Shown: positions 1-34,912, counted from the first letter of the stretch. The stretch: DNA of 36,881 bases from a virus (IMGVR_UViG_3300031111_000005:1-36881), one strand, 5' to 3'. Numbers and translations are program-made. The notes: a model not told the origin generated them from the letters alone.

Positions 1-127
1 CCTAATTTGTCTTACAATTTTTGCTGCCGTCCAATAACCACCAAGTAAATATGCCATTCTATTAAAAACAATCTCTTCATATCCTTGTGCTACTAAACAT
101 AAATTTAGTTCTTGCCCTACATTAGAA
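1..127. repeat. Terminal direct repeat, copy 1 (identical to 36755..36881)
   Basis: Direct comparison: cctaatttgtcttacaatttttgctgccgtcc...cttgccctacattagaa occurs at both ends of the window over 127 nt with no mismatch seen. Confidence 0.95.
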
Positions 128-13786: not shown

Positions 13787-14543
13787 TTAATATTCCTTGG
13801 AATTGCTTTAATTCCATATTATTTATTTGATGTTCCCATAATCTTAAAACTTTAAATCCTTTTTCAATTAATTCTTTAGTTCTAATATGGTCTAAATCAT
13901 TTCCTACTGGATACTTGTGCCAATAATCACCATCACATTCAATCACCATATTCATTGAAGGAATAAGAATGTCACATTGGTATTTATGTTTTATTTGATT
14001 CATAATTTGATGTGTATAAAATTCTATTCCCAATTTTTTTAAAAAACTTTGAATTTTTACTTCTATTTTTGTATCTTTCTCTGGAAATATTTGTTTTAAT
14101 CTTGCTTCCCTTATTTTTTGTTTAGTTTCTTCTGATAATTTCTTCCCTTTATTTCCTAAACTTATTTTATTTTTAGCTTCTTTTGTATGGGGTTTAATAG
14201 TTTGTTTAGCTCTAGCTTCTTTTATCTTTTCTCTTGTTTCCATAGTATGCCTCTTCCCATAAAAAGGATTATTTTTTCCATTCAAATTTCTTGCTTTTTG
14301 ACTATCACTAATTTTCTTTAAAACCTCTGTGGAATGTTTATGTCCCTTTTTAAATCCACCATTGTTAGTTTGTCCTTTTAATCCTTTATTCCAAGCTTCT
14401 TTTCCTTTTCTTTGTTCACTCCATAGTTCTTTTGTTTTTTCAGAATAAACATTTGTCTTACCTTTATGCCAAGGAGTATGTCCTACTATAAATCTTCCTT
14501 TTTCATCCTTGTTTTTATTTTCTTTATTCTCCATGATTTCCAT
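13776..14543 (-). mobile_element. Free-standing homing-type endonuclease: NUMOD3 repeats + Vsr/DUF559-like (PD-(D/E)xK) nuclease domain (255 aa)
   Basis: Repeated NUMOD3-like units (GKRHTMETREKIKEA, GKKLSEETKQKIREA, HKHSTEVLKKISDSQ, KPHTKEAKNKISLGNKG). C-terminal YQCDILIPSMNMVIECDGDYWH...DHIRTKELIEKGFKVLRLWEHQI matches the DUF559/Vsr-like pattern. Confidence 0.8.
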
Positions 14544-15432
14544 TCCCCGACTTGTCGTAAACGATATCTCCAGAAGCTTCGTTAAACGAATACCACAAAA
14601 CTAAATTATCCGAAGGTAGAGATGAGTTTGCTATTCTTCCTGAGTTGTAGATTTCTGAGATTTCTGTAATTGATAAAGTTTTATTATACATTCTAAATTC
14701 ATCTTGACTTCCCATTGAAACTGCATTACTTGAACAACCAAGATTTGAACCAAAAGAAATATTATAATTTAAAAAACCTTTTTCTTCTAATTCATTAACA
14801 CAACTTGAACTAACATCTTGGGTTATATTTAAAACTCCATCAACATAAGTAAATAAATCAGTTTTATTAAAACCATAAATTATATTGTGCCATTCCCCAT
14901 CATCTTTTGCAAAACCAGTTGTATAAGGTCCATTATCACATCCACTTGAATTAATTATCAATCTATTTCTAAATTGTGCAATACCCGAAGAATCTCTTAT
15001 ACCAATAATTGATGTTGGTAATGAACCTGTGTTAGATGAATTTTTAAAATTCACAATTACTCCTTCAGTTCCAGTACTTAAATTAGAATCTAACATTCTA
15101 ACCCAAATAGAATTTGTAAAACCTGAACTTAAATTTAAGTTTATTGTTTTAGTTCCCAAAATACAATCATTAACCCCATCAAATTCAAGCCATGAATTGT
15201 TGTGGGCTGTTGCTGAGGAGGAAGTTACTAAAAACTTTTCATTACTTAATTCATCAATATCTAAAGTATGATTTGTTTGAACAATAAAATCATCTGTTCC
15301 AGAACCAGTTTGTTGATTTTGTATATCATTTGAATAAATAACTTGCCCAACATAAGTTGCTAATGCTCCAAATAGAATCACAGCTATTAAAATTATTACT
15401 CCTTGTGTTACTATGTTATTATTTTTTTCCAT
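14524..15432 (-). CDS. LamG-domain protein with N-terminal TM/signal anchor (302 aa)
   Basis: Hydrophobic GVIILIAVILFGALATYV. LamG_3 pattern FTNSIWVRML...DGEWHNIIYGF...GSQDEFRMYNKTLSITEISEIYNSG. Confidence 0.85.
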   Translation of the reverse strand: MEKNNNIVTQGVIILIAVILFGALATYVGQVIYSNDIQNQQTGSGTDDFIVQTNHTLDIDELSNEKFLVTSSSATAHNNSWLEFDGVNDCILGTKTINLNLSSGFTNSIWVRMLDSNLSTGTEGVIVNFKNSSNTGSLPTSIIGIRDSSGIAQFRNRLIINSSGCDNGPYTTGFAKDDGEWHNIIYGFNKTDLFTYVDGVLNITQDVSSSCVNELEEKGFLNYNISFGSNLGCSSNAVSMGSQDEFRMYNKTLSITEISEIYNSGRIANSSLPSDNLVLWYSFNEASGDIVYDKSGNGNHGE

Positions 15433-16531: not shown

Positions 16532-17011
16532 TTATCCCGAACTTTCTGGACTCCATATTTGACTCCAACAAGCCCAAAAAGCATAAAGTATTATTGGTCC
16601 AATCATTAAACCAGCCACTATCATTCCTAATGTTGTAGTTGTTGAACCATCAACTATTGCATTACATCCAAATTCTGCTGTGCAAGTTATTGTTGTTAAT
16701 ATTTTACTTGAAACAAAAGTCCATAATTGTATGAATGGAGCTTCTACCCAACTTAATAAAACTGCAAACATTCCAACTCTTATTAACCAATCTTGTTTAA
16801 CATATAAAGTTCCAATTACTATTGAACCCAATCCTAATGATGTTAATATTCCTAATTCTGATTTTAAAGCATTTATTATGAAATCTGCAAAATCTGCTGT
16901 TGGAGAAATGAATACTTTTGCTATTTCACCTAAAACTCCCGAACCATCTATTATAAATAAAACTATTGAAATCAATCCTGAAAGCACTAAAGTATTAAAC
17001 ATCTTTCCCAT
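16532..17011 (-). CDS. Multi-pass membrane protein (159 aa from MGKMFNTL)
   Basis: ORF track entry trimmed to the Met overlapping the upstream stop (TAATG at 17009..17013); 4-5 hydrophobic segments. Confidence 0.65.
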   Translation of the reverse strand: MGKMFNTLVLSGLISIVLFIIDGSGVLGEIAKVFISPTADFADFIINALKSELGILTSLGLGSIVIGTLYVKQDWLIRVGMFAVLLSWVEAPFIQLWTFVSSKILTTITCTAEFGCNAIVDGSTTTTLGMIVAGLMIGPIILYAFWACWSQIWSPESSG

Positions 17012-20000
17012 TATATCATTCTCCTTGTAAAGTATCCTATTACAAAACAACTATAAACAAATGCAAAGTAATATTGATTAAACCAATCCCAATTTGAAAT
17101 ATCATTAAAAGTTAAAAATCCTGGTATTGATGCTATTACTACAAATATCCACATCAAGAAAACCATTCCTCCTCTTTCTTGAATATCCCATCCAGCATAA
17201 TTCATTACTGCACAAATTATTGTTGTTACTAAAAAGAATATTAAAATATAAGTGTAATCTCTATGATTAGGATTATCATTAAATAATTCTAAATCCATTG
17301 TTTTTAAACCTACAAAAAAATCTGTTAATGTTGAACCAGTAGTATTTGTTGTTTCAAAAATCCAATTTGCATCATCTTCTAATTGAACCCATCCATCTCC
17401 AATATCTATTAATAATCTTCCTTTTATAATTTGATAATCTAATGAAGAAGAATAATTTGTTTGAACAAAACAACTTGAATTACTACTTATTGCATTTTCT
17501 TGATTTGTAGATAATGTTATTGATTTATTTTGGTTTAAAATATCTATTCTACACATTTGTAAATTTGAATTTGAAGAAGTTATATTAAAACCAAAATTTC
17601 TTTCCGAACTATTTTCTATTATTCCTATGCTTGGAAATATATACCATTTTAATCCATCTAAATCTGATTCTGATAAATATTGTGAGGAGTTTGTTCCTAA
17701 ATTAATTGTGTAAGAACTTTGTGTTGGAATTATTGAATAAATAACACTTCCATATCCTGATTTTGTGAATGTGAATGTATGAGAGAAATCTGGATTAACC
17801 CAGAAAGTTACTGACCCAGCACTATCTGTTGTTCCTGTTCCAACTGTTACGCTTTCTTCATCTATTGTTCTTACTACTGTTGCATCTACTCCATTCAATG
17901 GTCTATTTGAAGAATCTAAAACTTGGAATGTTGTATAAATACCATCTGTTGAACTAAGTAAATAAAGAATTTTATTTGTTGTAGTATTTGTATAACTTGT
18001 TAAGGTTGGATTATAAATTCTTTGAGGATATGTTGTTCCTTGTTTATATTGGATGTATGGGTCAACATTTAATGTTTTATCTCTCGCATTTAAACAAAAA
18101 GCATAGCTTGGATTATCACTTGTATTAATAAATGTTAAAGTTTTAGTTACACTTCCATCTCCTAAATAATATTCAAATGTTGAAGTTGTTATACTTCCAT
18201 TTATATAAGTTAAAGTTCCTTCATCTTTGAATGTATAATTAACATAACTAACATTGTTTGTTGCATTACATAAATCAAATATTAAATTATTTACATCTTG
18301 TCCAAGAAGATTTGTTTGTTTTGTTCCACTTCCATAATCTATTGTCCAATTAAATGTTTTGTTTCCTATTATGCTATTTGCATTTGTTAAACTTACTTTC
18401 CATAATTGATTTGTAGAACTTCCAATATTTGTTCCAGAATAAGAAGAACCATTTAAATTTAATGTTGCAGAACTTATTGAAGTTAATTCATTTACACTTA
18501 TGTTTAATAAAAAATTCTCTGTTGCAGTTTCATAACTTGTTACATTAAATATTTCTTCATTATATTCATAAGCAGTTATATTAAAAGTATAATTAGATGT
18601 TGCAAATTCACAAAAATTATAAGTTTCATTTCCACCACATAAATAATAATTCCATTCATAAGAATCATTTATTGTTAAATTATATATTGAACTTACTGTT
18701 GAATTATATGTTCCACTTAATTCTGTAAAATTTGTTATTCTTAATGAACTATCTGGATTCCAAATATATAGTGTTGCATTTGTAAACTCAAGACCAGATG
18801 TTATTTGTGATGTGCAATTAAAAAATAATGTTCTATTTATTGTATTTAGATAATTTTCTGGGTAATTTAATTCTGTTATTATTGTTCCAGAACTTTCAAA
18901 ACTTAAACCAACACCACCATTATATAAATCATCAATTTCTGCAACAGTTAAACTTCTATCCCACATACCAACTTCATCTATATCCCCAAATAATTCATCC
19001 CCCCCTCCACCCAATAATGTAATATTTCCTGTTACTATACTTCCAGTAGCTTTTGTTACATTTACTAATGTATTATTAACAAAAACTTCTAAATCTAAAC
19101 TTTCATTTCTTTGTAAAACTAAATGTGTCCATTGACTTCCATCTTGAGGTATTCCAGTTTGAAAATTAGTTGTATCACTTCCAGCAACAAAAACTCTCAT
19201 GTTTCCTCCAGCAATATTAATGAATCTTATTCCATTATTGTCAGTTGGTTCTTTTATGTTAAAGAAAACTCCAGTTCCACTTTCTCTAACTTTAACCCAC
19301 ATAGAAACTGCAAAAGGATTTGTAGAATTTGGAAATCCAGTAAAATCTGTTCCACTTGTTGTCATATATGCTCCAGCACTACCAGTTCCATTTACTTTTC
19401 CATTTATTAAACCATTTGTATTAAATTCTGTTTCTCCCATTAAAGTAAGATTTAATTGAACACCATTGGTTGCACCACCTATATCTTCTGCAATAGTTCC
19501 ACTTGTTTCGTCTAATCTCCAATAATGAGTTAATCCGTCTGCTGCACCCCACAAAGCCCATTCTTCTAACCAATATCCTCCAACTTTAATTTGCCAATCT
19601 GTTTTAGAAAGTATTTCTAATTCTCCTTTTATATCAACATCATAAGTTCCTGATTTAACTTCTGTTCCTAATTCATAAAGTTTATTATTTACATAAATTT
19701 GATAACTTTCTGGTTGGTCGCCAATAAATCTTATATCTTCAATAAGAACTCCATCATCTTCTAAAACAACTTCTACATTAGCATTACATTTTCCATTTTT
19801 ACATATCTCAGTATTATCTTTTAAAGTTAATTCTTTTGTTTTTTCAAACCATCCAAATACATCAATCCAACTCTTTTCTTTCAAAGTTATTTTTCCATAC
19901 TTAGTCATATCAGTTGATTTTATTTCATCCTTAACAAAACTCTTAGTTACTCCAGCACTAACTAAACTAATCATAAAAATTCCTAAGATAACTATTAACA

Positions 20001-20013
20001 TTATTTTTTTCAT
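17011..20013 (-). CDS. 1000-aa envelope/fibre-like protein: signal peptide, LamG domain, long N-x-S/T-rich beta region, multi-TM C-terminus
   Basis: MKKIMLIVILGIFMISLVSA signal. LamG_3 pattern FAVSMWVKVR...GSQWTHLVLQR...LFGDIDEVGMWDRSLTVAEIDDLYNGG. C-terminal ~120 aa contain several hydrophobic helices. Confidence 0.85.
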   Translation of the reverse strand: MKKIMLIVILGIFMISLVSAGVTKSFVKDEIKSTDMTKYGKITLKEKSWIDVFGWFEKTKELTLKDNTEICKNGKCNANVEVVLEDDGVLIEDIRFIGDQPESYQIYVNNKLYELGTEVKSGTYDVDIKGELEILSKTDWQIKVGGYWLEEWALWGAADGLTHYWRLDETSGTIAEDIGGATNGVQLNLTLMGETEFNTNGLINGKVNGTGSAGAYMTTSGTDFTGFPNSTNPFAVSMWVKVRESGTGVFFNIKEPTDNNGIRFINIAGGNMRVFVAGSDTTNFQTGIPQDGSQWTHLVLQRNESLDLEVFVNNTLVNVTKATGSIVTGNITLLGGGGDELFGDIDEVGMWDRSLTVAEIDDLYNGGVGLSFESSGTIITELNYPENYLNTINRTLFFNCTSQITSGLEFTNATLYIWNPDSSLRITNFTELSGTYNSTVSSIYNLTINDSYEWNYYLCGGNETYNFCEFATSNYTFNITAYEYNEEIFNVTSYETATENFLLNISVNELTSISSATLNLNGSSYSGTNIGSSTNQLWKVSLTNANSIIGNKTFNWTIDYGSGTKQTNLLGQDVNNLIFDLCNATNNVSYVNYTFKDEGTLTYINGSITTSTFEYYLGDGSVTKTLTFINTSDNPSYAFCLNARDKTLNVDPYIQYKQGTTYPQRIYNPTLTSYTNTTTNKILYLLSSTDGIYTTFQVLDSSNRPLNGVDATVVRTIDEESVTVGTGTTDSAGSVTFWVNPDFSHTFTFTKSGYGSVIYSIIPTQSSYTINLGTNSSQYLSESDLDGLKWYIFPSIGIIENSSERNFGFNITSSNSNLQMCRIDILNQNKSITLSTNQENAISSNSSCFVQTNYSSSLDYQIIKGRLLIDIGDGWVQLEDDANWIFETTNTTGSTLTDFFVGLKTMDLELFNDNPNHRDYTYILIFFLVTTIICAVMNYAGWDIQERGGMVFLMWIFVVIASIPGFLTFNDISNWDWFNQYYFAFVYSCFVIGYFTRRMI

Positions 20014-20279: not shown

Positions 20280-20645
20280 TTAGTATGTAGGGTAATAAGG
20301 TTGAGGTTCTTGTTGAACTGAACCAGCAATTCTTCCAGACACTATTCCAGATATTATTGAAAAAACTATTGTTAATACATACATTCCAGGTGTGAAATTA
20401 AGTATTGAACAAGTAATTGTATCTGTATCTTTTGTAGCATCATAGGACTTATTATTTGCACCTAAAGTTGCTTCATTAGGGTCTGTATAACCTGGACAAT
20501 TTGCTGAATCACTACCTTTTCCCATTCCAATCATTTGAATAATTGATGGTAATAAAGCCGACAACATAAAGAACATCATAACTGCTACTAACATTCCTGT
20601 TATCATTCCCATTCCCATTTGTCCTCTTTTGTTTTTACTTTTCAT
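20280..20645 (-). CDS. Prepilin-like protein with class-III signal peptide and C-terminal TM (121 aa from MKSKNKRGQ...)
   Basis: Start set at the ATG at 20645, preceded by AAAGGAGGAT. MKSKNKRG/QMGMGMITGMLVAVMMFFML matches the archaeal prepilin/pre-archaellin pattern: a basic N-terminus, [KR]-G, then about 20 hydrophobic residues. Confidence 0.5.
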   Translation of the reverse strand: MKSKNKRGQMGMGMITGMLVAVMMFFMLSALLPSIIQMIGMGKGSDSANCPGYTDPNEATLGANNKSYDATKDTDTITCSILNFTPGMYVLTIVFSIISGIVSGRIAGSVQQEPQPYYPTY

Positions 20646-20724
20646 TTTATCCTCCTTTAATTTAATTAACTCCCCCAATTTCTTGGGGGAGGTCAATACG
20701 ATACCCAATCTTAATTGACTATGA

Positions 20725-20847
20725 TTACTTCTTTTTATAAGAAGATTTTGCAATTTTAAGAACTTCCTTTAAACTTTTTCCTTCGTTCTTTTTCATTGCC
20801 TTACACTTTTTAACATGGTTTATCCATGGATTTGTTTTTGTTTTCAT
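20725..20847 (-). CDS. Small basic protein (40 aa, MKTKTNPWINHVKKCKAMKKNEGKSLKEVLKIAKSSYKKK)
   Basis: Hand translation; GGAGG 7 nt upstream. It occupies the region covered by the N-terminal extension of ORF-track entry 20280..20753. Confidence 0.45.
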   Translation of the reverse strand: MKTKTNPWINHVKKCKAMKKNEGKSLKEVLKIAKSSYKKK

Positions 20848-21135: not shown

Positions 21136-21310
21136 TTTTTAATTTCTTCTCCATTTTAACTAATTCTTTGTAATAACAAGGACTTTCTTTTAGATGGTCT
21201 TTTGCTATCTTAATAGCCATTATCTTTTGTTTTCCTTTTGGAAATAAATGTGCGTGTTCCATTTCTATTTTAGTTCCAAGTTTTAATTGTTTTGATTTAT
21301 TGCATTTCAT
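21128..21310 (-). CDS. Small protein (60 aa) with EMEH...DHLKESPCYYKEL motif
   Basis: ORF track; 4-nt overlap with the upstream giant gene. Confidence 0.55.
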   Translation of the reverse strand: MKCNKSKQLKLGTKIEMEHAHLFPKGKQKIMAIKIAKDHLKESPCYYKELVKMEKKLKNA

Positions 21311-24300
21311 ATTACACTTAATACCCCCCTTCTTGATTTTTTTATTTCACTTCTTTCACCCAGACTTCCTAATCTTGTTTCTCTAATTTGAACTATACTT
21401 AATGGGTCAACTTTACTTTTTCTAAATCCTCTTGTTGGACCTAATCCTATTTGTTTTCCTTTTGTTGTTTTAACTTTTAATGTTGCTCCTAATGTTTTCT
21501 TTACTCTTTGTTTTCCTGCTTCAACTATTCTTCCTAAATCTTTTCCTTTTGCAATCACTACTTCTTTTCCATATCTTTTTGTTATTGCTAAAAATTCTTC
21601 ATCTCCTTTTCTTCTTTTTGTAATTCTTCTTTTTATCTTCTTAGACTCTGGTAATTTAAATTTTATTTTAAATGGTCTTTTTGGTATTGGTCTTTTTATA
21701 GTTTCTTTTGGTCTTGGAGTTCTTAATCCTGTTCTTAATACTTGTATTGGTTTAGTTGCTTGTGTTGTTTTTGTTACAACTTTTATTTTTTCTCCAATCT
21801 TTATTTTTTCTAAAGGTTTAATTCCAATATCTAATTTTGGTTTTACATCTAATTTTTCTCCAAAATCTACTCTTGATGGTTGTTTGAATTTTAAACCAGT
21901 ATCTAAATTAATATTTGTTTTAATAAATGAATCTCCCATAATAACTGGACTAATTATTGAAGTTATTTCTGGTTTTAAATCCATTGCCCCATATTCTTCT
22001 GTTCTTTCATATAATCCAGTTCCAGCATATTTACTTTCTTCAACTATTGGTAATGGAGTTGTTTCAGTTACTTTTGGTAATTCTAATTTACTTTCTTGTG
22101 TTGGTTTAGTCTTTGGTATTTCTTTTATTCTTGGTGCTTGTTTTAATTCTGGAGCATATAAACTTTGGATATACTCTGGAGAACTTTTCTTTCCTCCACC
22201 TTTAAAACTAAATACTTTATCTTCCTTTGGAACTTTTTTAACTAATAAACTTCTACTTGTTTCAATAAAACCTCTATTATCAAAAGGAACTTTTACTTTT
22301 CCACTTACTCCTAAAACATCTTTGAATACATATTCTCCAACTCTTCCACTTCTCAATGTCTTAGCTCCTAAAACTCCTGTTTCAAAATCTGCTCCCCTTA
22401 AGTTTAAAATATTTCTTCCTATTTTTGCTTCTGCTCCAGCACCAATAGTTAATGCTCCTCCTTTAGTTGGTATTCTAATATCTGAAAATGTTTTAATATC
22501 TGTCTTTCCTCCCCTTGTTTTTATTCCTAATGATTTGTCAACATCAATAACTGGTTTTTCTAATCTTGTAGTAAACTTTCCTACTCCAAAACTATCTTTA
22601 ATATTAACTTCTCCTTCTAATAATTGCTTTGAAACTTTTGGTTGTTTGTATCTTAAAAATTCTCTTGCTTGTTTTTCTGTATATCCTAAATCTTTTAAAT
22701 ATTGTAATTGGTCTTGGTATTTTCCAGGTTGTTTATATGTAACTCCACTAAATAATTCTTTTTCTTTTATTCTTCCAAAGAATCCTTCTTTTATTTCTTT
22801 TACTCTTGTTCTTTGTCCTGCTTTTCCAAATTGTTCTAATTGTTGCTCTGTAAATTTAACTTTCTTTCCCAAATCTGCACCTAATGGGTATGTTTTTAAA
22901 TCTGCTATTGGCTTATCTATTTTTAATTGTTCAAAGTATCTTCCTCTTGTTGAAGGTAATATTTCATATTTTAATCCTGCTCTTGGTTCTGATAATCTTA
23001 TTCTTGTTCCAAAGAACTCATCAAATCTTGAAGTTTGTTTAAATCCCCCTGGAACTTCTTTAAATATATTTTTTCCAAATGCAAAACTTCCAGCTTTTAA
23101 TCCTCCCCACGCTGCTAAAGGTGCAAATAATAAACTTGTTTCTACTGGTTTATCTCCAAATGCTTTTAATGGGTCATAATCATAATCTCTTAATCCTCTT
23201 TCTATATCAGAAGCATAAAAAGCTCCACCAAGAATCGGTATAGTATATGGAACTAACATCCCACCTATTTTTGAAAATTTATCTTTTCCTTCTAATTCTC
23301 TAACTTTTAATATTTCTTCTGTTGATTGCACTCCTCCAACTTCTCCAATTTCTGCAAATCCAGAATCTAAATTCCAAATAGGTATTTCTTTTTTTCCTCC
23401 AACAAATTGTCTTGCTTGTGTTCCTCTTGCTTGTAATCTTTCTAAAAAATCTGTTGTTGATTCTGAAATAGGTTGATAAACTTGTTCTCTTAAAGTATCA
23501 CTAAAATATCCCAAACTTCCTTTTCTATTTATATCTTCTAACATTAATCTTTCTTGTGGAGTTGGAGGTTGCATATATAGAGTTGAACTTGAACCTTCTG
23601 GAACTCCTGGAGCTGTTTGAACAAACATTTGTGAACTTGGTTGATAACTCCATCCTTCCCTTGATGGTGCTTTGTATATTAATTCTTGTGCATATCTTGG
23701 GTCAAAAGTCATTCCTCCTACTTTTGTAGATTCTCTTCCCAAAATACTTGCTTCTGTTGGAGAATATCCTAAATTTTCATATCTTGATATTTCTGATGTA
23801 ACTAATTTAGTATCACTTATTTTTGGTTGAAAAATACTTTGTTGCTGATAACTTTTAAATGGGTCTATTTTTATTTGTTCATTTATTCTTGCTACTTGGC
23901 TAAATGGAGTTCCAACATCTCCAACTTTAACATAACCTTCTTTAGTTAAATCTTGCATAGAACTCATACCTTGTCCAGTTTTTGGGTCAACAAAATACCC
24001 CCCAGTTCCTTCTATTTTTGATTGACTTGTTATACCCCCTAATTCTTGTGATGGAACATCTTTGTAAGTTATTTTTTCTTTTACTGCCCAAGGCAATTTA
24101 GAAATATCTTGTTGTGTTGCTGTTCCTTGACTTAATTTATCTAATACTGGTTTATTTCTTAAATAATCTGAATAGTTCTTAAATCCAATTTGTTGTGCTT
24201 GTTTATTTTGTTGTTCCTTTGCTTTTGATTTATCATAAATATAATCTGCTTCTGATGCTGCTTCTCTAAATGCTTGTCCAGAACTAACTCCCTTAATTGC

Positions 24301-24786
24301 TTTAAATGGGTCTGAAATATAAGATTTTAATGTTTCTAATTCTGCTTTTGTAGCCCTTATATCTATTTCATAATCTTTTATTGTTTCATCACTTAATCCC
24401 CTACTTTCTGCTTCTTTTAAACCTTTTTGATAATTAAATAATCTATTTTGTAAATTTTGTATCTTTGGGTCTAATTGAGATTTTGCTTTTTGGTATTCTA
24501 TTTTAACTAATTCTGGATTTGCATACTCTGGAGCTTTTTGTGCCACTTCTTGTTCAAAAGATTGTGCTTGTCCAGATACTTGTTTCATTGCTTTTTCATA
24601 AGGAGCAACCTTTTTTCCAAATCCTATCTTTCTCATTAATGCACTTGCAACACCTTTAACTCCTCTTTGAGTTCCTCTTAATTCTGCTTGAGAAGGAAGT
24701 TGTTGTTGTCTTGCTTGTGCTAACTGGCTTTGTTGTTGAGAAATAGATTGTCTTTGTTGTGCTATCTGAGATTGAATATCAGCCAC
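21307..24786 (-). CDS. 1159-aa protein: Gln-rich coiled N-terminus, central globular part, highly basic K/R/P-rich C-terminus (function unknown; virion-associated candidate)
   Basis: ORF track (the start at 24786 is GTG). QSQIAQQRQSISQQQSQLAQARQQQ. C-terminal RPKETIKRPIPKRPFKIKFKLPESKKIKRRITKRRKG. Confidence 0.8.
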   Translation of the reverse strand: MADIQSQIAQQRQSISQQQSQLAQARQQQLPSQAELRGTQRGVKGVASALMRKIGFGKKVAPYEKAMKQVSGQAQSFEQEVAQKAPEYANPELVKIEYQKAKSQLDPKIQNLQNRLFNYQKGLKEAESRGLSDETIKDYEIDIRATKAELETLKSYISDPFKAIKGVSSGQAFREAASEADYIYDKSKAKEQQNKQAQQIGFKNYSDYLRNKPVLDKLSQGTATQQDISKLPWAVKEKITYKDVPSQELGGITSQSKIEGTGGYFVDPKTGQGMSSMQDLTKEGYVKVGDVGTPFSQVARINEQIKIDPFKSYQQQSIFQPKISDTKLVTSEISRYENLGYSPTEASILGRESTKVGGMTFDPRYAQELIYKAPSREGWSYQPSSQMFVQTAPGVPEGSSSTLYMQPPTPQERLMLEDINRKGSLGYFSDTLREQVYQPISESTTDFLERLQARGTQARQFVGGKKEIPIWNLDSGFAEIGEVGGVQSTEEILKVRELEGKDKFSKIGGMLVPYTIPILGGAFYASDIERGLRDYDYDPLKAFGDKPVETSLLFAPLAAWGGLKAGSFAFGKNIFKEVPGGFKQTSRFDEFFGTRIRLSEPRAGLKYEILPSTRGRYFEQLKIDKPIADLKTYPLGADLGKKVKFTEQQLEQFGKAGQRTRVKEIKEGFFGRIKEKELFSGVTYKQPGKYQDQLQYLKDLGYTEKQAREFLRYKQPKVSKQLLEGEVNIKDSFGVGKFTTRLEKPVIDVDKSLGIKTRGGKTDIKTFSDIRIPTKGGALTIGAGAEAKIGRNILNLRGADFETGVLGAKTLRSGRVGEYVFKDVLGVSGKVKVPFDNRGFIETSRSLLVKKVPKEDKVFSFKGGGKKSSPEYIQSLYAPELKQAPRIKEIPKTKPTQESKLELPKVTETTPLPIVEESKYAGTGLYERTEEYGAMDLKPEITSIISPVIMGDSFIKTNINLDTGLKFKQPSRVDFGEKLDVKPKLDIGIKPLEKIKIGEKIKVVTKTTQATKPIQVLRTGLRTPRPKETIKRPIPKRPFKIKFKLPESKKIKRRITKRRKGDEEFLAITKRYGKEVVIAKGKDLGRIVEAGKQRVKKTLGATLKVKTTKGKQIGLGPTRGFRKSKVDPLSIVQIRETRLGSLGERSEIKKSRRGVLSVI

Positions 24787-25245: not shown

Positions 25246-25710
25246 TTATCCACCAAACATAGCCCAAATTATCAAACCAATTATTGCAGCTCCAATAAGT
25301 AATCCAATCATTTTTTTGTTTACTTCTTTATTTTCTTTCTTTGAAACAGCTCCTAAAATCATTTTAATTAAAACTGGATGGTCGTCTGTATTAAATCCAT
25401 TTGGGCTATCTCTAACAGAAACTGGTTTTGTATCTTTTTCTCGGACAATATACCATGTATGCTTTCCCCTTACCCAAGTATCTTTTGGGTTTATTTTATG
25501 CCCTTTATTATCTATAACAACAATGTTTCCAGATACAACTTTAACTAATTTGAAATCTACGGTCCTATTATTTCTAAGGTATTGGACTAAAACAAATTCT
25601 GGTTTCTTTTTTGATTTCTTTGAAAGTCTTTCAAATTTTCTATCTTTCCATTTCTTTTCTTCATATTCTAATTGATTCAATTTATTTTCTATACTTTCTA
25701 ATTTATTCAT
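25246..25710 (-). CDS. Tail-anchored membrane protein (154 aa)
   Basis: ORF track; C-terminal MIGLLIGAAIIGLIIWAMFGG. Confidence 0.65.
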   Translation of the reverse strand: MNKLESIENKLNQLEYEEKKWKDRKFERLSKKSKKKPEFVLVQYLRNNRTVDFKLVKVVSGNIVVIDNKGHKINPKDTWVRGKHTWYIVREKDTKPVSVRDSPNGFNTDDHPVLIKMILGAVSKKENKEVNKKMIGLLIGAAIIGLIIWAMFGG

Positions 25711-26141
25711 TTGTTCTTACCCCAGAATGATTTTTTTCCTTCTTGTGTTATTGGAAGACCTAATTTTTTCTCTTTTGAAGCAAACCTTTTTGCAGTAACA
25801 AACAATTCTGTAAACCATCCTTTCTTAGATGCTGATGTTCTTAATACTATTTGAGCTTGTTCTCTCATCCATAATGCAAAACCATGATGCCCTAATAATT
25901 CTGCAACTTTTGCTATATGCTGACAATCCCTTACAGAAATATCTAACATTCCTAATTCTGTTTTATCTAAGTTACCAACTTTACTTGAATCATCTACTGT
26001 TGCAACTTTCCAGAAAAGAGAATATAAATCATCTGGTTTTTCAAATGTTGGAGAATTATCTTCTGCGTAATCCTCTTGTGCTTCATTTTGAGCTTCTACA
26101 TTTTGTTCAATTAAATCTTCTTGTTCTTCATCAATGTCCAT
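25707..26141 (-). CDS. Hypothetical protein with acidic N-terminus (144 aa)
   Basis: ORF track; 4-nt overlap downstream. Confidence 0.65.
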   Translation of the reverse strand: MDIDEEQEDLIEQNVEAQNEAQEDYAEDNSPTFEKPDDLYSLFWKVATVDDSSKVGNLDKTELGMLDISVRDCQHIAKVAELLGHHGFALWMREQAQIVLRTSASKKGWFTELFVTAKRFASKEKKLGLPITQEGKKSFWGKNK

Positions 26142-26163: not shown

Positions 26164-26760
26164 TCAATCATATTCTTCTTCGTAATCAGAGTGATTATAT
26201 CCATTATAAATATAAGCCCCTATTGAAAATAATAATCCTAATCCTAAAGAAATAAAAGATAAATACCTTGAATTTTCATCATTTAATGTTCCAATTCCAT
26301 AAATCATTATTAATATTCCTGTTAATAAAAAACATATTCCAGAAATATAAACAAATAATTCTTCATTTACAAAAACTGATAAAATTAAAAAGACAAAAGC
26401 AAATACATAAAGAATTATTAATAAAACAAATAAATTACTTCCAATTAAAAAATAAGTTGCAAAATCTTTTTCACAACCATTACTTATTCCTCTAACATCA
26501 TATCTTCCAGATTCTACCGAAGTTAAACAAAAATCATAATAAAATTCTCCACTACCTGCACTTGTCATTTCTATATTACTTACTGCTACACTTGAATTTG
26601 GATATGATATTGAACTTATATTTATCCAATCAGCATTATTACAAGTTTGAGTTACTCTTACACATTCTCCTCTATCAAATGTTCCTAAATTATCTAAAGC
26701 ACTTACCATGCTAAATGTTAATATGCATGTAAATATTGTTAATAATATTTTTTTATTCAT
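26164..26760 (-). CDS. Secreted-domain + multi-TM membrane protein (198 aa from MNKKILLTIF)
   Basis: ORF track entry trimmed to the Met in ATGA overlap at 26757..26760; signal-like N-terminus; 3-4 C-terminal hydrophobic helices. Confidence 0.65.
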   Translation of the reverse strand: MNKKILLTIFTCILTFSMVSALDNLGTFDRGECVRVTQTCNNADWINISSISYPNSSVAVSNIEMTSAGSGEFYYDFCLTSVESGRYDVRGISNGCEKDFATYFLIGSNLFVLLIILYVFAFVFLILSVFVNEELFVYISGICFLLTGILIMIYGIGTLNDENSRYLSFISLGLGLLFSIGAYIYNGYNHSDYEEEYD

Positions 26761-29700
26761 TCTATATTCCTCATACAATTTACTATTTCTGATTGAGTTG
26801 ATAAATCCCAACAATCTAATTGTTGTTGTTGTCTATCTTCTAATTTTGAAATCTTCCATAACATTAAAACATTCATTGCTCTATTTGTATGTCCAATAGC
26901 TTCTAAATTATAACTTCCATAATCTGACTTTTCATAATCAAACAAAATATTATCACTTAATTTTCCATCTAAAGTTAATATCATATCTTTCATTTGTGAA
27001 TATGTTTTTGTAGATAAAGCATCATAAAAAATTTCTAATTTATTTAATGTTTCTGGTTCTTTTGTTGTATTAGTAATGTAATGTTCTGCTAAAACAGAAT
27101 TTTCAAATTGAGTTATATTTTTTAAATGTTTTATATTTCTTTCAGAATATTCATATGCTTTTTGAATCATTACACTTTTACAACCAGTATTAATACCATT
27201 AATTTTTTTATGTGAATAATATGTTTCTTCAACTTCTTTTAAAGAACAAACTTCTTTAATATTTTCCATAACTTCTGATTCATTCATTTCTCCACTATCA
27301 GATAAATCTTTTAATTCATTTTCTGTATAACCATTAATTGCAACATATTCACAAAACTCTCTATTTACATTTCTTACTTCTGGTTTTGATAAATCTGTTC
27401 CATTATAAGCACATTCACCCCAAGCAGAATAGTTTCCATCATTTCCACCATTTGCTTCTGCATATTTTACTAATTCGTATGCTTCTTCATTAGATAATTT
27501 AGTTATATAGGTATGTTCTACGAAAGTTCCTGCTTCTGCAGTTCCCCACCCAGTTCCATTAAATATCTTTGTTGCACCACTATTTGAATTATTTATAATA
27601 ACATCATCTCCAAGACCATATACTCTTGAACCATCATAACCTCCAAATAAAATATCAGTTGTTCCTTCTAAAACTATTCCATAATTGTTTTCTGCATTAG
27701 TTGGTTCTTCAAGATACATGTGAGTAAAATTTTGTATATCTCCAATTTCTGCATCTGAAAAATAAGCAGAAGTTATCTCTGTTACATTTGAACCAGTTGA
27801 AAAAACATTTGAAATTGGTTTAAGTAATAAAACCTTTAAATCATCTGCTTTAATAGTTCCAAGCAAACTTTGAACTCCAGTAATTCTTGTTCCAATAACA
27901 CTTAAATTTTTATTTCCATTATTTCTAAATGAAAAAGCACCTGCAAAATCTAAACCTATTGTTTTAGCAGAATCTCCAAAATTAGTTCCAATAATTATTG
28001 GATAACCAAAAATACCAGTAAATTCTTCATTAAATGGAGTTGTTGTTGTATCAACTGAAACAGTATTATAAAATCCATATCCACTATTAGAATTATTTGA
28101 ATGAGTTTGTCGTAAATCTATTTTTGCACTTTTAACTAAACCTAAATTAGACAAAGATATAGTTCCTTCTTCACTTCTTAAAGTATCTCCGAATGTTATG
28201 TTTCCTGTAACATTAAAATTTCCACTTAATTTTCTTGAACCATTTGCTAATAAATATTGAGTATGGTCGTCATCTAACAAACCCCCTAAGTTTCCATGGT
28301 CTGTTGCTTGTGCAGGTGTAAATTGTGTTGTAAAAGAACTTTGAACTTCAATAGGAACATCTACTCCTTTCTTGAATAATATTCTTCCAACCAACATTCC
28401 ATGTTCATACCAACTACTTGGAAAATTTGGAACTTCCTCTGCCTCTGCATTTGCTACATTTGAATATTGATTTTGAGGATAAATTAACATAAGTTGTCCA
28501 TTATCCACTGTTCCAAATTGAATAAAAACCCAAATATTTGCATAATAATTATTATTTATTTCTTGTAGTGTTCCACTTCCATCATCATAATATGTATTAT
28601 TCCATTGAGTATATGGTCCTTCTCTATCGTAACTTCCACCAACATCTCTATAAAAAGCATAAAAACTATCTCCTCCAGAACAATCTTTTGTTGTTATTGG
28701 ATATTCCTCTCCAATATATAAAATATTACTTTGTGTTAATGTAGGATTTCTTGTTCCAGTATATCCTAAAATTAATCCTCCAACTCTATTATCTCTTATT
28801 GGTCCTGCACTTTCTAACCACTCTAAAATATTTGTAGTTGAATCTCCTGTTTGCCAAGGTAAGCTAAGAGGATATAAATTATCTTCTAAATTAATAACAC
28901 TACCTAAAGGAAATTCAGTATCATAATTCCATGTATTTGTTTCTTTTGATAATATTCTTGGAGTTCCTGAATTATATTCTACTCCTATGTATCTTATTGA
29001 ATCTGTTGGAATACTAACAGAAGTATTTGCATCCCACTTCATGAATTTAACTTGGGAAATATCATCATCTGCAATTCTAAATGTTCCATTACCACTTGCA
29101 ACTGTAACTGTTTGGTCATCATTATCTGTAATTGCTCCACCTTGAATTTGCCCAGCAGAAGTATATAAATTCCAAGCATCATTCAAACTTGAATAACCAT
29201 TGTTTCCTTTCATATCATTTATAAAAATATCACTTACATTTATTATACTATTATCTCCCATATTCAAATCTCCTCCAATTTCAAAACTACCATCAACAGT
29301 TAAATTTTCAAGTAAATGCAAATTGTATGCTTCAATTTCTTCTGCATTAATATTTTGAACATATAAATTTAGCCATCTTAAAGCACCAGAACCTAAAGAA
29401 TAAGTTAAAGTAGTTCTTGGAAATAAATCAGAAAAATAAGAATTTCCATTAACTTGTAATTCTTGGTCTATTTCTAAATCAGTTCCACCTAAATACCAAG
29501 GGTCACCATCCATACTTAATTGCCCAACAACTCCTTGAATGAAATTAAAAAAACCAGTGTAACCCAAAGCATTAACATCTCCACCACTTATTTCATCATA
29601 AGTTATATCTGCTGGAGTATCTCTATCATCCCAGTAATCTGCAACTCCAGAACTTTCTGAATAATTAACATTAATAGAATAATTCTCACCTTCAATAACA

Positions 29701-29864
29701 GTTTCTCCTTGTTCTAAATAATTGTAACCAAACTCGTTCGCAGAAATAAAAGTAAAACTAAAAAAAATAAATAAAAATATTCCAAAAACCTTGAATGACG
29801 AATTAAATGCCTTTACGGACTCAGCCTTCATCTCATCAGTTTTTGTTTTATATTTTTTAAACAT
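26757..29864 (-). CDS. 1035-aa fibre / host-recognition-like structural protein
   Basis: N-terminal hydrophobic VFGIFLFIFFSFTFISA. Long G/N/T/S-rich beta-type sequence. ATDHGNLGGLLDDDHTQYLLANGSRKLSGNFNVTGNITFG resembles, from memory, a motif common in viral fibre proteins. It is encoded immediately after the capsid-like gene. Confidence 0.8.
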   Translation of the reverse strand: MFKKYKTKTDEMKAESVKAFNSSFKVFGIFLFIFFSFTFISANEFGYNYLEQGETVIEGENYSINVNYSESSGVADYWDDRDTPADITYDEISGGDVNALGYTGFFNFIQGVVGQLSMDGDPWYLGGTDLEIDQELQVNGNSYFSDLFPRTTLTYSLGSGALRWLNLYVQNINAEEIEAYNLHLLENLTVDGSFEIGGDLNMGDNSIINVSDIFINDMKGNNGYSSLNDAWNLYTSAGQIQGGAITDNDDQTVTVASGNGTFRIADDDISQVKFMKWDANTSVSIPTDSIRYIGVEYNSGTPRILSKETNTWNYDTEFPLGSVINLEDNLYPLSLPWQTGDSTTNILEWLESAGPIRDNRVGGLILGYTGTRNPTLTQSNILYIGEEYPITTKDCSGGDSFYAFYRDVGGSYDREGPYTQWNNTYYDDGSGTLQEINNNYYANIWVFIQFGTVDNGQLMLIYPQNQYSNVANAEAEEVPNFPSSWYEHGMLVGRILFKKGVDVPIEVQSSFTTQFTPAQATDHGNLGGLLDDDHTQYLLANGSRKLSGNFNVTGNITFGDTLRSEEGTISLSNLGLVKSAKIDLRQTHSNNSNSGYGFYNTVSVDTTTTPFNEEFTGIFGYPIIIGTNFGDSAKTIGLDFAGAFSFRNNGNKNLSVIGTRITGVQSLLGTIKADDLKVLLLKPISNVFSTGSNVTEITSAYFSDAEIGDIQNFTHMYLEEPTNAENNYGIVLEGTTDILFGGYDGSRVYGLGDDVIINNSNSGATKIFNGTGWGTAEAGTFVEHTYITKLSNEEAYELVKYAEANGGNDGNYSAWGECAYNGTDLSKPEVRNVNREFCEYVAINGYTENELKDLSDSGEMNESEVMENIKEVCSLKEVEETYYSHKKINGINTGCKSVMIQKAYEYSERNIKHLKNITQFENSVLAEHYITNTTKEPETLNKLEIFYDALSTKTYSQMKDMILTLDGKLSDNILFDYEKSDYGSYNLEAIGHTNRAMNVLMLWKISKLEDRQQQQLDCWDLSTQSEIVNCMRNIE

Positions 29865-29881: not shown

Positions 29882-30112
29882 TTAAGCCATACCTGCATCT
29901 CTTAGGTTACCATACAATACAGCAATTCCAATCGCTAAAATAGCAATAGCGAAGAAACCAGGAACTATCTTAAGAACAGTTGCACCCCAGCTTGAAGCGT
30001 TGTATAGAGAACCATTAGTTGCAGCAGCAGTGTTTACTTGGTCAGAGATAGGTCCGATAAGTGAAACACCGATTAGGATTGAAATGAATCCGTTAATAAA
30101 TCTTGCAATCAT
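29882..30112 (-). CDS. 76-aa two-helix hydrophobic protein, candidate major capsid protein of the spindle-shaped-virus type
   Basis: Two hydrophobic helices (FINGFISILIGVSLIG and IVPGFFAIAILAIGIAVLYG) flank a short polar loop. It is the first gene of the about 30-kb minus-strand string, sits behind a class-2 promoter, and is visibly more GC-rich than its neighbours. Confidence 0.55.
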   Translation of the reverse strand: MIARFINGFISILIGVSLIGPISDQVNTAAATNGSLYNASSWGATVLKIVPGFFAIAILAIGIAVLYGNLRDAGMA

Positions 30113-30153
30113 TTGTCTCTTTTATTTTAATACCTCTGTAGTAGTATGAAATA

Positions 30154-30179
30154 ATTTTGTTATTTAAACTTTTCGAATA
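30154..30179 (-). promoter_or_regulatory. Class-2 promoter upstream of the capsid-like gene
   Basis: Minus-strand reading TATTCGAAAAGTTTAAATAACAAAAT; shares GAAAAGTTTAAATAACAAA with 16193..16226 and 24952..24985. Confidence 0.6.
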
Positions 30180-30190
30180 TTTTTTACTGT

Positions 30191-30222
30191 AAAGTAGTTA
30201 AAATAAAAACTTCACTACTTTT
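30191..30222. promoter_or_regulatory. Palindromic operator-like site in the divergent control region
   Basis: aaagtagtTaa-aataaaaac-ttCactacttt. The right arm is the TTCACTACTTTT box of the class-1 promoter; the left arm is its inverted copy with one mismatch. Confidence 0.5.
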
Positions 30223-30245
30223 AAGTTAATAACAATATTTATAAA
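30211..30245 (+). promoter_or_regulatory. Class-1 promoter driving the plus-strand module
   Basis: TTCACTACTTTTAAGTTAATAACAATATTTATAAA. TATA (TTTATAAA, 30238..30245) lies 21 nt before the ATG at 30267 (leaderless-like). Confidence 0.6.
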
Positions 30246-30266
30246 CATAATTAATTTACAAACATA

Positions 30267-30436: not shown

Positions 30437-30907
30437 ATGGCTTACAAAAGTAATGTAACTCCTCAACAAGATACTGGTTGGGGTGTAATTTATAGATTGA
30501 ATGATTTGTTTAGAGAGATAGAAACTTTAGCAACAAATGGAAAGTATGATGAATGGAATTATAAGTTGGATAGAATTTTTAGTAACCTTTGTTATAGAAA
30601 TCCTTTAAAAATTGAAAAAGACAAAAATGAAAATATTTCTTCTATTGAATTTGATGAAGAATCTTTTAGAGTTAAATTATTTTTAGATACACAAATTTTA
30701 AAACATAAAAGAGATATGAAAATTGCAGAAAAAAAAATACCAGTTGGACATGAATCTTCAAAAAGTAAAGAATGGATTAAAGCAAAAAAAGAATTATATA
30801 AATCAATATTTTTAAAAGAAGTTTGGTTAAGGAAATATATGTCTGAATTAGGGCTTTATCTTAAAGAGGTTGAATATAATCCAGCTGGGGCTATGTGGGG
30901 TAAATAA
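30437..30907 (+). CDS. Hypothetical protein (156 aa)
   Basis: ORF track; its stop abuts the next ATG (TAAATG). Confidence 0.7.
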   Translation: MAYKSNVTPQQDTGWGVIYRLNDLFREIETLATNGKYDEWNYKLDRIFSNLCYRNPLKIEKDKNENISSIEFDEESFRVKLFLDTQILKHKRDMKIAEKKIPVGHESSKSKEWIKAKKELYKSIFLKEVWLRKYMSELGLYLKEVEYNPAGAMWGK

Positions 30908-31876
30908 ATGTTAGTAACAGATATAAAAAGAAAAACTAAGAATGGAATTAAAACTGGATTTTATATGCAAGGTTATCTTAAAAGAAATCTTGATGGAGTT
31001 CCAGAATTTCTAAAAAAAGAATGGGATGTTGTTGGAATTATTTCTGGGCATGGAAAAGTTGGAACTGGAAAATCAACTATGGCATTAAATGTTGCTTATT
31101 ATTTAGCATGGATGTTAGCTGGAGGAAAAATGATTGATGAAGAATATGAAAAAGGTAAATTTAGAGTTAAAGAAATTATATCCCCAAAAAAACCAATTAG
31201 ATTTGGAATGGAAAATATTGTATTTACTCCAGAAGACTTAATGAAAAAAGCTGAAACACTATACAAAAAATATGGACCTAACCAAGTGATAGTTTATGAT
31301 GAAGGGAAGTCTGGTCTTGATTCTGCTAATGCTATGATGAGTATAAATAAAGCTATGGTAGAATTTATGCAAAGATGTAGAGTATATCATCATATTATTT
31401 TGATTGTTCTTCCAAATTTCTTTAAATTACATGAAGATTATGCTGTGGCAAGAAGTTTGTTCTTAATTGATGTTTATGCTGATAAAGAATTTAATAGGGG
31501 GTTCTTTTCTTTCTATAATGAGTTACAAAAAGAGAAATTATATTACTTTGGTAAGCGTTTAATAGGTGTAAGGGCAAGATATGCGGCTGCAAAGCATAAT
31601 TTCTGGGGTAAATTTACTAAATGGATGCCTGTTGATAAGGATGAATACGATAAAGCCAAAATGAAAGCTATTAAAGACCTATCAATGACTAAACATGATG
31701 TAAAATATAAGATTCAAAGGGATGCGGCAATTTATTTGACACAAAAGTATTCCAACATGCCTTCTGACAAGATTTCTAAAGAATTAAGTGCAGTTTGTGG
31801 TGAGAAGATTAGTCCTCGGAGCATTAGGTATGCAATTTCTAATATAACTAAAGAAAAAAGTTCTGAAATTGAATAA
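30908..31876 (+). CDS. P-loop NTPase with C-terminal HTH-like region (322 aa)
   Basis: Walker A GHGKVGTGKST; Walker B QVIVYDEG; the C-terminal ~80 aa are helical with an HTH-like stretch (ISPRSIRYAISNI). Confidence 0.8.
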   Translation: MLVTDIKRKTKNGIKTGFYMQGYLKRNLDGVPEFLKKEWDVVGIISGHGKVGTGKSTMALNVAYYLAWMLAGGKMIDEEYEKGKFRVKEIISPKKPIRFGMENIVFTPEDLMKKAETLYKKYGPNQVIVYDEGKSGLDSANAMMSINKAMVEFMQRCRVYHHIILIVLPNFFKLHEDYAVARSLFLIDVYADKEFNRGFFSFYNELQKEKLYYFGKRLIGVRARYAAAKHNFWGKFTKWMPVDKDEYDKAKMKAIKDLSMTKHDVKYKIQRDAAIYLTQKYSNMPSDKISKELSAVCGEKISPRSIRYAISNITKEKSSEIE

Positions 31877-34268: not shown

Positions 34269-34599
34269 TTTTTTTTAATTTTATTTCTAAATTAATTATC
34301 CTTATTTGGTATATTAAAAGAGCAAGAGAACAAATCCATATTAATAAATCTCCTACTGAAATATACATTTTTTTTCCATTCATTAAATTAATTTTATAGA
34401 TGTCTGATAATTGATAATATTTAATTTCTTCTCTATCTTCAAAATTGAAATGTTTATTTGTATCAATAATATAATTAGTTTTTACAGGCATTCTCCAATC
34501 ATTAGAAGCCATAGCTACAACATTTAATAGCATTCCAATTAATAGAGCCAATATAATTAAATTTCTGTCTAACTTTAGAGATATTATTTTATTTTGCAT
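34258..34599 (-). CDS. Two-pass membrane protein (113 aa)
   Basis: ORF track; its 3' end overlaps the convergent ATPase gene by 11 nt. Confidence 0.6.
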   Translation of the reverse strand: MQNKIISLKLDRNLIILALLIGMLLNVVAMASNDWRMPVKTNYIIDTNKHFNFEDREEIKYYQLSDIYKINLMNGKKMYISVGDLLIWICSLALLIYQIRIINLEIKLKKIKD

Positions 34600-34759
34600 T
34601 TTCTTTGTTTATTTTTTTACTTTTATAACCCATATTAAAAGCACTTTTAAATATATCTTTTTCTAATTTTGTTATATATCTTTTATTTTCTTTTAAAAAC
34701 CATAAATTAAATTCTTTTATTGCTTTTTTTCTTTTTTTTACTTTTATTTTTCTTCTCAT
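34589..34759 (-). CDS. Small basic protein (56 aa from MRRKIKVKKRKK...)
   Basis: ORF track entry 34589..34894 trimmed. The upstream 45 codons run through GC-rich element A and are judged non-coding. Confidence 0.5.
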   Translation of the reverse strand: MRRKIKVKKRKKAIKEFNLWFLKENKRYITKLEKDIFKSAFNMGYKSKKINKENAK

Positions 34760-34770
34760 TTTTATTATTT

Positions 34771-34912
34771 TCCTTTTAAAGATTAAAGGATAACTACCTT
34801 TCCTTTCCTTGCCTGTCCTCGCCCTTCCAAGCCATGCCAAGCCCCGCCAAACCTGAACTTCATCGGCAAGATGACTATGAAGCCCAACAAACATTTGGGC
34901 AAAATTTAATTA
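34771..34912 (-). repeat. GC-rich intercistronic element, copy A: stop-codon-abutting hairpins + (GGNNN)12 tract (34794..34853) + 3' hairpin (34771..34790)
   Basis: See findings. Minus-strand reading TAATTAAATTTTGCCCAAATGTTTGTTGGGCTTCATAGTCATCTTGCCGATGAAGTTCA-GGTTTGGCGGGGCTTGGCATGGCTTGGAAGGGCGAGGACAGGCAAGGAAAGGAAAGGTAG-TTA-TCCTTTAATCTTTAAAAGGA. Confidence 0.85.

Follow-up and report, generated by a model that had tools for sequence, protein, structure and literature searches.

The window analyzed here, a stretch of viral DNA of 36,881 nucleotides (IMGVR_UViG_3300031111_000005:1-36881), appears from its gene content to be the complete genome of an uncultured archaeal virus of low G+C content, circular or terminally redundant and very probably spindle-shaped. 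The gene on which this reading turns (29882..30112, minus strand) encodes a hydrophobic alpha-helical hairpin of 76 residues that profile comparisons, a structural model and hydropathy together mark as a VP1/VP3-like major capsid protein. Based on that homology, on the order of the surrounding genes, on conservation across a wide family and on the lack of any other capsid system detectable in the window, we consider it likely that the DNA belongs to a virus of an uncultured archaeon with a lemon-shaped shell made of this VP1/VP3 homolog, a particle known here from its genes alone.

The 76-residue protein and its family

The open reading frame at 29882..30112 starts with ATG, and its translation is identical to the 76 residues given in the original prediction. 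As had been proposed there, it heads the minus-strand gene string, being the first gene beyond a divergent intergenic region (30113..30266), and the order described for the genes behind it was confirmed: a 1035-residue ORF (26757..29864) begins 17 nt past the capsid gene, and genes for membrane proteins and three Laminin_G_3 proteins come next. The proposed topology of two hydrophobic helices and a polar loop was likewise borne out. Kyte-Doolittle analysis placed hydrophobic segments at residues ~3–22 and ~44–68 around a polar stretch, and an AlphaFold2 model built on 32 diverse homologs is a hairpin with helices at residues 2–32 and 39–72 joined by a turn at 33–38 (mean pLDDT 86.5). An N-A-S sequon lies in the turn, with its asparagine, N38, invariant across 32 diverse members, and sits five residues from the aligned N-A-T of SSV19 VP1; the turn is probably N-glycosylated. 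Foldseek comparison of the model with the PDB and BFVD returned nothing significant, 7xdi included (best E 0.5–1). As a bare helical hairpin is too simple for such a search to be informative, we do not count this result against the capsid reading.

Sequence profiles were more telling. Pfam contained no match for the 76-residue protein, and PHROGs contained two, phrog_11172 (E 1.2e-5, profile positions 71–132 of 137) and phrog_5402 (E 2.5e-5), both of which are labelled as virion structural protein. Since SSV1 VP1 matches the former at E 1.9e-73 and SSV1 VP3 the latter at E 9.2e-42, the two represent the VP1 and VP3 families, respectively; neither was matched at 1e-3 by His1 VP21 or PAV1 ORF121. 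A profile of the 76-residue family searched against all PDB sequences had as its best match 7xdi_A, named VP1 (E 4.3e-4, query residues 4–69 against chain residues 18–81), from an entry that we take to be the SSV19 virion, and the second match was ~100-fold worse. These single-profile E-values, from 1e-5 to 4e-4, are moderate for a type of protein, the hydrophobic hairpin, that is prone to composition-driven matches (bias of 4–6 bits).

Direct comparison with the SSV1 proteins gave higher scores as the family profile was widened. In a local hmmsearch SSV1 VP1 scored 23.6 bits against the narrow profile, and after broadening of the profile by 197 family domains the scores were 50.9 bits for SSV1 VP1 and 35.9 bits for SSV1 VP3, whereas TM-rich proteins of the window outside the structural module, which provide a control for hydrophobic composition, scored less than 5 bits. 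The alignment of SSV1 VP1 to the family is in register across both helices, and tblastn without SEG between the 76-residue protein and the SSV1 VP1 locus revealed 34% identity over 67 residues. We have little doubt about placing the protein in the VP1/VP3 capsid superfamily, and the capsid reading, for which size and topology had been the original grounds, now has the support of sequence statistics. The original prediction had likened the protein both to fusellovirus VP1 and to His1 VP21 and had suggested HMM comparison with capsid profiles. The first likeness stood, as fusellovirus VP1 and VP3 were both matched, and the second proved much weaker, with His1 VP21 reaching only 15.9 bits against the broadened profile, on which the NYMAG-47 capsid protein scored 3.3 bits. 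The prediction had also named membership of a non-structural membrane protein family as the contrary outcome; PHROGs returned the VP1 and VP3 families only.

The 76-residue protein is not a chance ORF, as a word-indexed search retrieved 843 homologs (clusters at 90% identity) at E≤0.01. The best 120 of the 843 are at least 68% identical to it, are nearly all exactly 76 residues in length and carry no functional annotation. When 1.84 billion cluster representatives were searched exhaustively with a profile, 404 clusters (50% identity) were identified at E≤1e-3. Members have several forms: the 76-residue form; a form of 135–150 residues in which the core is C-terminal and preceded by a TM-plus-charged extension, reminiscent of the SSV1 VP1 precursor; a form with charged C-terminal tails; and a form of 170–260 residues with a long insertion in the turn, which is frequent in the family at large.

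Independent contigs from IMG/VR, ENA and one GTDB genome have a capsid gene with 68–76% identity to that of the window, together with a P-loop ATPase (44–57% identity) and its 156-residue partner, the adjacent 216-residue membrane protein, the 144- and 154-residue proteins and the 1000-residue LamG protein described below. Contigs with capsid or ATPase genes cluster at ~33–47 kb, although some that bear the capsid gene are 57–68 kb in length. In the relatives L001, L002, L003, L004 and L015 the capsid protein has a fixed length of 76 residues and an identity of 68–76%, as against 23–57% for the other shared proteins, and its variation across relatives is concentrated in the turn. Such exceptional conservation implies that the packing of the two helices is under very strong constraint. 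One of these relatives, the 57-kb contig L015, has a DDE transposase gene (PF01609, 8968-9885) directly upstream of its capsid gene, showing that insertion sequences invade these genomes. No match to the capsid protein, the ATPase, or the 1159- and 1000-residue proteins was found by tblastn among 50,697 phage and archaeal-virus records.

Spindle-shaped viruses infect only archaea, and for a long time nearly all known examples came from extremophiles; the capsid family identified here is very widespread in ordinary metagenomes. Plain profile HMMs suffice to detect it and it is unannotated, so it would provide a simple marker for spindle viruses in aquatic and sediment data, and it may give access to the little-known viromes of DPANN archaea.

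Genome unit and structural module

The two ends of the window share an exact direct overlap of 127 bp (1..127 = 36755-36881), an assembly overlap that points to a genome unit of 36,754 bp, either circular or terminally redundant. This is consistent with the apparently circular genome of ~36.8 kb described originally. G+C content is ~28% throughout, and the sequence corresponds to ENA contig ERZ27252236:k141_3174644. All 68 candidate proteins were scanned against Pfam, and all except the methyltransferase and one overlapping ORF against PHROGs. The matches include a C5 DNA methyltransferase, an HTH protein, DUF5661 and DUF5317 proteins and an AAA-like protein, and ~80% of the window's genes are orphans. 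No scanned protein matched a terminase, portal, HK97 capsid, double-jelly-roll capsid or PolB family in Pfam or PHROGs, in agreement with the original prediction, whose author had recognized none of these structural genes and no protein-primed polymerase; the conventional capsid and terminase set that might have overturned the prediction did not emerge from profile search. Structure-level searches covered two proteins, the 76-residue capsid protein and the 322-residue ATPase, and a very divergent capsid fold within the 1159-residue protein or other orphans might have escaped notice. Rfam, tRNA and tandem-repeat scans of the window produced nothing relevant.

The sole recombinase, identified with Pfam and PHROGs, is a small serine recombinase of the resolvase/DNA-invertase type (229 residues, 1011..1700, minus strand), and no window protein matched a tyrosine recombinase in either database, so the serine rather than tyrosine recombinase of the original description is upheld. 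As an enzyme of the small invertase or resolvase type, it is no evidence for an integrase, and it would more probably resolve genome multimers or invert a segment than integrate the genome. Two Cys-rich paralogs, 704-1042 (111 residues) and 3997-4302 (100 residues), flank the recombinase, the C5 methyltransferase and several small ORFs. Both ends of the paralogs share stretches of 52–64 nt with 89–96% identity, spaced ~3.2–3.3 kb apart, an arrangement that might represent a mobile or duplicated cassette; the close relative L010 has the recombinase, but no methyltransferase was detected in it. Elsewhere, three minus-strand genes in a row are each preceded by a direct repeat of ~95–116 nt (34724-34917, 35388-35576 and 36146-36240; 60–83% identity). 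An imperfect palindrome, CCTTTAATCTTTAAAAGG, and a GGAGGT ribosome-binding site are present in every copy, and the three may represent a repeated promoter/operator unit. The listed start of the ORF at 34589..34894 is probably too far upstream, because the ORF runs into one of these repeats. A 194-residue protein in the same region (35569-36153, minus strand) matches phrog_4652 over its full length (E 1e-20) and has ~26% identity to hypothetical proteins encoded by mycobacteriophages and Gordonia phages.

A 35-nt promoter-like element that contains AAAAG-TTTAAATA (30147..30181, minus strand) lies ~50 nt upstream of the capsid gene and has near-identical copies at 24951-24985 and 16192-16226, each in an intergenic gap ahead of a gene string. 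In the minus-strand reading, ...TTCAAAAAGTTTAAATAACAAAGTTACTGTA, the element bears what we take to be a resemblance to an archaeal BRE/TATA promoter, and it looks like a late promoter of that type. On the plus strand, diverging from the capsid gene, is a conserved pair of genes (30437..31876) for a 156-residue protein and a 322-residue P-loop (ASCE) NTPase, the latter being the second family-wide core gene. Alignment of the ATPase family with SSV1 B251 by hhalign covered the Walker A motif only (probability 14%), and a search of PDB sequences produced no match for the ATPase. Its model had generic ASCE P-loop matches only, including STIV B204 (E 9e-3, TM 0.27), and is without a nuclease domain.

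The 1035-residue protein encoded next to the capsid gene (26757..29864, minus strand) is a candidate fiber or adhesin. Its residues 217–514 match a phage tail-fiber family, phrog_5668 (E 5e-40), which substantiates the label of fiber-like that it had been given, and it has 32% identity to the tail fiber of Stenotrophomonas phage DLP_6 (E 3e-35). The presence of this domain in a putative archaeal-virus protein suggests that receptor-binding modules may be exchanged between virus groups with hosts of different domains. The genes that follow, all on the minus strand, encode a multi-pass membrane protein of 216 residues (26164..26814), located next to the capsid gene also in related contigs; two conserved virion-module proteins of 144 and 154 residues (25246..26141), of which the latter has a C-terminal TM segment; and a protein of 1159 residues (21307..24786) that begins with a Q-rich coiled coil and ends in a K/R-rich stretch. 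No relatives of the 1159-residue protein were found in Pfam, PHROGs, the PDB or phage records. Further along is a Q/P/K-rich protein of 246 residues (15437-16177, minus strand), also of strongly biased composition and with no relatives in Pfam, PHROGs or phage records. Both proteins of biased composition are candidates for a DNA-condensing or internal virion protein.

Three Laminin_G_3 proteins are encoded on the minus strand. The largest, of 1000 residues (17011..20013), is conserved in L001 and has a signal-like N-terminus, 35 N-X-S/T sequons and C-terminal TM segments. The second, of 302 residues (14524..15432), is N-terminally anchored and sequon-rich, and the third, of 478 residues (12350..13786), has a C-terminal TM anchor and 29% identity over 117 residues to PAV1 ORF678. 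Sequon density in the LamG proteins, and in a 174-residue VP1-like protein, is about twice that expected, which fits exposed glycoproteins. Wedged between the two smaller LamG genes, and overlapping both by 11–20 nt, is a homing-endonuclease-like gene (13776-14543, minus strand) with NUMOD3 repeats and a Vsr/DUF559-type nuclease. Because the single TM helices of the flanking LamG proteins resemble VP1 helix 1 and helix 2, the two genes were considered as halves of one VP1-anchored gene; this idea was rejected, as the homologs of the 478-residue protein are all stand-alone proteins of 463–495 residues.

The 174-residue protein (11544..12068, minus strand) is a paralog of the capsid protein. It scored 33.8 bits against the broadened capsid profile with both helix 1 and helix 2 in register, and differs by an insertion of ~100 residues in the turn that is rich in Thr and N-X-S/T sequons. 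Its matches (3e-39 to 1e-24) include three proteins, P0228, P0194 and P0177, that the capsid profile itself retrieved at 2e-9 to 8e-13. The window thus carries two VP1-like genes, as SSV1 does with VP1 and VP3. A third hairpin membrane protein (20280..20753, minus strand) is tentative, as only its helix 2 resembles VP1 helix 2 (19.7 bits).

Taken as a virion, these genes would produce a shell built from the 76-residue protein. On the model of SSV19 VP1, the paired hydrophobic helices of a hairpin would lie alongside each other in strands, and the strands would make up a lemon-shaped shell, with the polar and probably N-glycosylated turn facing outward. The capsid gene would head the structural operon directly behind a strong promoter of archaeal type, a promoter-proximal position that is as expected for the most abundant virion protein. 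The tail-fiber-domain protein, the helix-anchored LamG glycoproteins and the 174-residue paralog are likely to represent the terminal or adsorption apparatus and minor capsid components, and the ~100-residue insertion in the turn of the paralog would display an extra domain on the shell. Such loop-insertion paralogs suggest a testable route by which a two-helix capsid protein could gain surface domains.

Alternative readings and the host

Other readings of the same genes need to be weighed against a spindle-shaped virion. As the structural region consists largely of genes for membrane-anchored and glycoprotein-like products, and no more of the particle is known than its genes, the DNA might belong to a pleomorphic virus of the membrane-vesicle type, or to a plasmid spread by vesicles, with the VP1-like hairpin residing in the envelope instead of forming a protein shell; such a particle would lack the spindle shape. 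A P-loop ATPase is also typical of pleolipoviruses. We consider this reading unlikely, since the spike and membrane families of pleolipoviruses were unmatched in PHROGs and Pfam and the sole specific match of the 76-residue protein is to VP1/VP3, which to our knowledge is known only from spindle-shaped virions. The same helical hairpin could instead build a rod-shaped or bacilliform virion, as in clavaviruses. According to Wang et al. (2022), as represented in PMC10866085, the hairpin capsid proteins of rod- and spindle-shaped archaeal viruses are structurally related, and this ambiguity was weighed by Ni et al. for NYMAG-47 (PMC10866085). For the window a rod appears distinctly unlikely, because the similarity is specifically to fusellovirus VP1/VP3 and, following an argument made in PMC10866085, a genome of ~37 kb better fits the larger capacity of spindle forms.

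The remaining alternatives deny the 76-residue protein its role as the capsid protein. The DNA could be that of a tailed or icosahedral virus whose capsid genes have diverged beyond detection, in which the hairpin would be an accessory protein such as a holin. Several matches are indeed to phage families (the tail-fiber domain, phrog_4652, phrog_15946 and phrog_1250), and orphans make up ~80% of the genes, yet no soluble orphan of 250–600 residues is left to be an HK97 capsid protein, portal or large terminase. The ORFs of more than 200 residues are accounted for by the recombinase, methylase, HTH protein, endonuclease, LamG proteins, ATPases, membrane protein, Q-rich 246-residue protein and three proteins of at least ~1000 residues, and the modeled ATPase, which has no nuclease domain, resembles P-loop proteins only in a generic way. 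We judge a virus of this type to be very unlikely. Least probable of all, in our estimation, is that the protein is a conjugative-pilin-like or other non-capsid membrane protein, carried by a plasmid or integrative element, with a compositional similarity to VP1. Archaeal and bacterial conjugative pilins are also helical hairpins of ~70–80 residues, and an Aeropyrum conjugation pilus was among the non-significant Foldseek matches (E 5.5). However, the window has no VirB4-, VirD4- or VirB6-like gene, its ATPases being of only 322 and 265 residues; the VP1 match is in register over both helices and reaches 51 bits with the broadened profile, whereas the window's other TM proteins mostly fall short of 5 bits; and only VP1/VP3 was matched in PHROGs, a database rich in holins and membrane proteins.

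For the spindle-shaped virus that we favor, a host can be proposed with less assurance than a capsid. The only match among 185,579 species genomes was in the 24.7-kb contig L001, which is binned as Candidatus Pacearchaeota and encodes an MCM-domain helicase, an archaeal signal, and one homolog of the ATPase is labelled Candidatus Nanoarchaeia. These two labels of metagenome-assembled genomes, together with the low G+C content and the archaea-specific capsid protein, point to a DPANN archaeon (Pacearchaeota/Nanoarchaeia), a host assignment that we regard as evenly balanced since it rests on the two labels and, as PMC10866085 cautions, the binning of viral contigs often goes wrong.

Comparison with known virus groups

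The closest counterparts to the capsid protein are in the Fuselloviridae. VP1 and VP3 of these viruses (SSV1, and SSV19 VP1 in PDB 7XDI) have, like the 76-residue protein, a hydrophobic two-helix hairpin core of ~70 residues, with significant profile similarity over both helices and common motifs, ILIG..L.GPI..VN, (A)T.L.LVP.F and the N-X-S/T sequon of the turn. Fuselloviruses also resemble the window in having two paralogous capsid genes and a large fiber or adhesin gene in the same module. Their circular dsDNA genomes are roughly 14–24 kb. The window differs in its size (36.75 kb versus 15,465 bp for SSV1), its G+C content of 28% and its source in apparently non-thermophilic metagenomes. No homolog of SSV VP2, VP4 or the SSV-type tyrosine integrase and no convincing homolog of B251 was found in the window, and tblastn to SSV1 matched only VP1. 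Unlike SSV1 VP1, the 76-residue form is without an N-terminal propeptide, and the second paralog has the ~100-residue loop insertion.

Other spindle-shaped viruses share architecture more than sequence with the window. PAV1 is circular, with membrane proteins and two large concanavalin-A/LamG-like proteins encoded behind its capsid gene. One of its LamG domains is weakly similar to that of the window (29% over 117 residues), and there are no other shared genes. It differs in having a genome of 18 kb, a hyperthermophilic host and a capsid protein, ORF121, that is not detectably similar to the 76-residue family. The spindle viruses of the Halspiviridae (His1) and Thaspiviridae (NSV1), which are mesophilic or halophilic, share the hairpin type of capsid protein with the window, but are linear with terminal inverted repeats and a protein-primed PolB, whereas the window has a direct 127-bp overlap and no PolB was found in it. 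Of the Caudoviricetes hallmarks, HK97 capsid, portal and large terminase families were all unmatched in Pfam and PHROGs, and the tail-fiber domain is the only tailed-phage-like element; nor did either database reveal a Varidnaviria-type double or paired single jelly-roll capsid or an FtsK/HerA-type packaging ATPase.

Metagenomic studies have described viruses of a comparable kind. Wu, Liu and Ni reportedly described metagenomic DPANN viruses with a spindle morphotype inferred from genes (Nat Microbiol 9:3362, 2024). As far as the work of Wu et al. (2024) is represented in PMC13573593, it places spindle-shaped DPANN viruses in seven named groups that resemble the window in their probable host superphylum, metagenomic origin and gene-inferred morphotype, and the lineage of the window may already be among them. 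Further metagenomic spindle viruses include the Huangdivirus of Bathyarchaeia, nanohaloarchaeal viruses and DHSV-1, a rolling-circle spindle virus without PolB (10.1101/2025.02.15.638363).

The closest published concept is the proposed family ‘Nipumfusiviridae’ (Ni et al. 2024), which comprises NYMAG-47 and 10 IMG/VR genomes, complete (‘cyclized’) at 27–38 kb, with an SSV19 VP1-like major capsid protein, an ATPase and no PolB (PMC10866085). Like the window, these viruses have homing endonuclease and methyltransferase genes and no recognized tailed-virus structural genes. Their shared core consists of a Zn-binding protein, three unknown proteins, the capsid protein and the ATPase, and the 89-residue capsid protein of NYMAG-47 matched phrog_11172 at an HHpred probability of 75% (PMC10866085 and its supplement). 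However, the NYMAG-47 capsid protein, taken from that supplement, does not align with the 76-residue family (3.3 bits), and tblastn of window proteins against 14 of the 35.6 kb of the member NMP1 gave no match. ‘Nipumfusiviridae’ genomes also have a G+C content of 33–37%, a tyrosine recombinase and Nitrosopumilaceae as proposed hosts, compared with 28% and a serine recombinase in the window. These mismatches, with the differences in G+C content and recombinase, indicate that the window belongs to a separate lineage within the same broad kind.

The original prediction had presented the window as a candidate new spindle-type virus, set apart by its size and circularity, its serine recombinase and its lack of a protein-primed polymerase. 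Those differences hold against the classical families, but size, circularity and the lack of PolB do not set the window apart from recently proposed groups such as ‘Nipumfusiviridae’, and the claim of novelty was overstated: the window is a new lineage among viruses of a type that already turns up in metagenomes. A more specific picture, which as a whole we offer only tentatively, is of an unnamed and globally distributed family, with the window as its type, of spindle viruses of ~33–47 kb that infect Pacearchaeota/Woesearchaeota-like DPANN archaea. In this picture the VP1 hairpin serves as a scaffold on which turn insertions, as in the 174-residue paralog and the forms of 170–260 residues, display extra domains at the shell surface, and the capsid protein stands nearer to the Sulfolobus fusellovirus protein than do those of His1 and PAV1.
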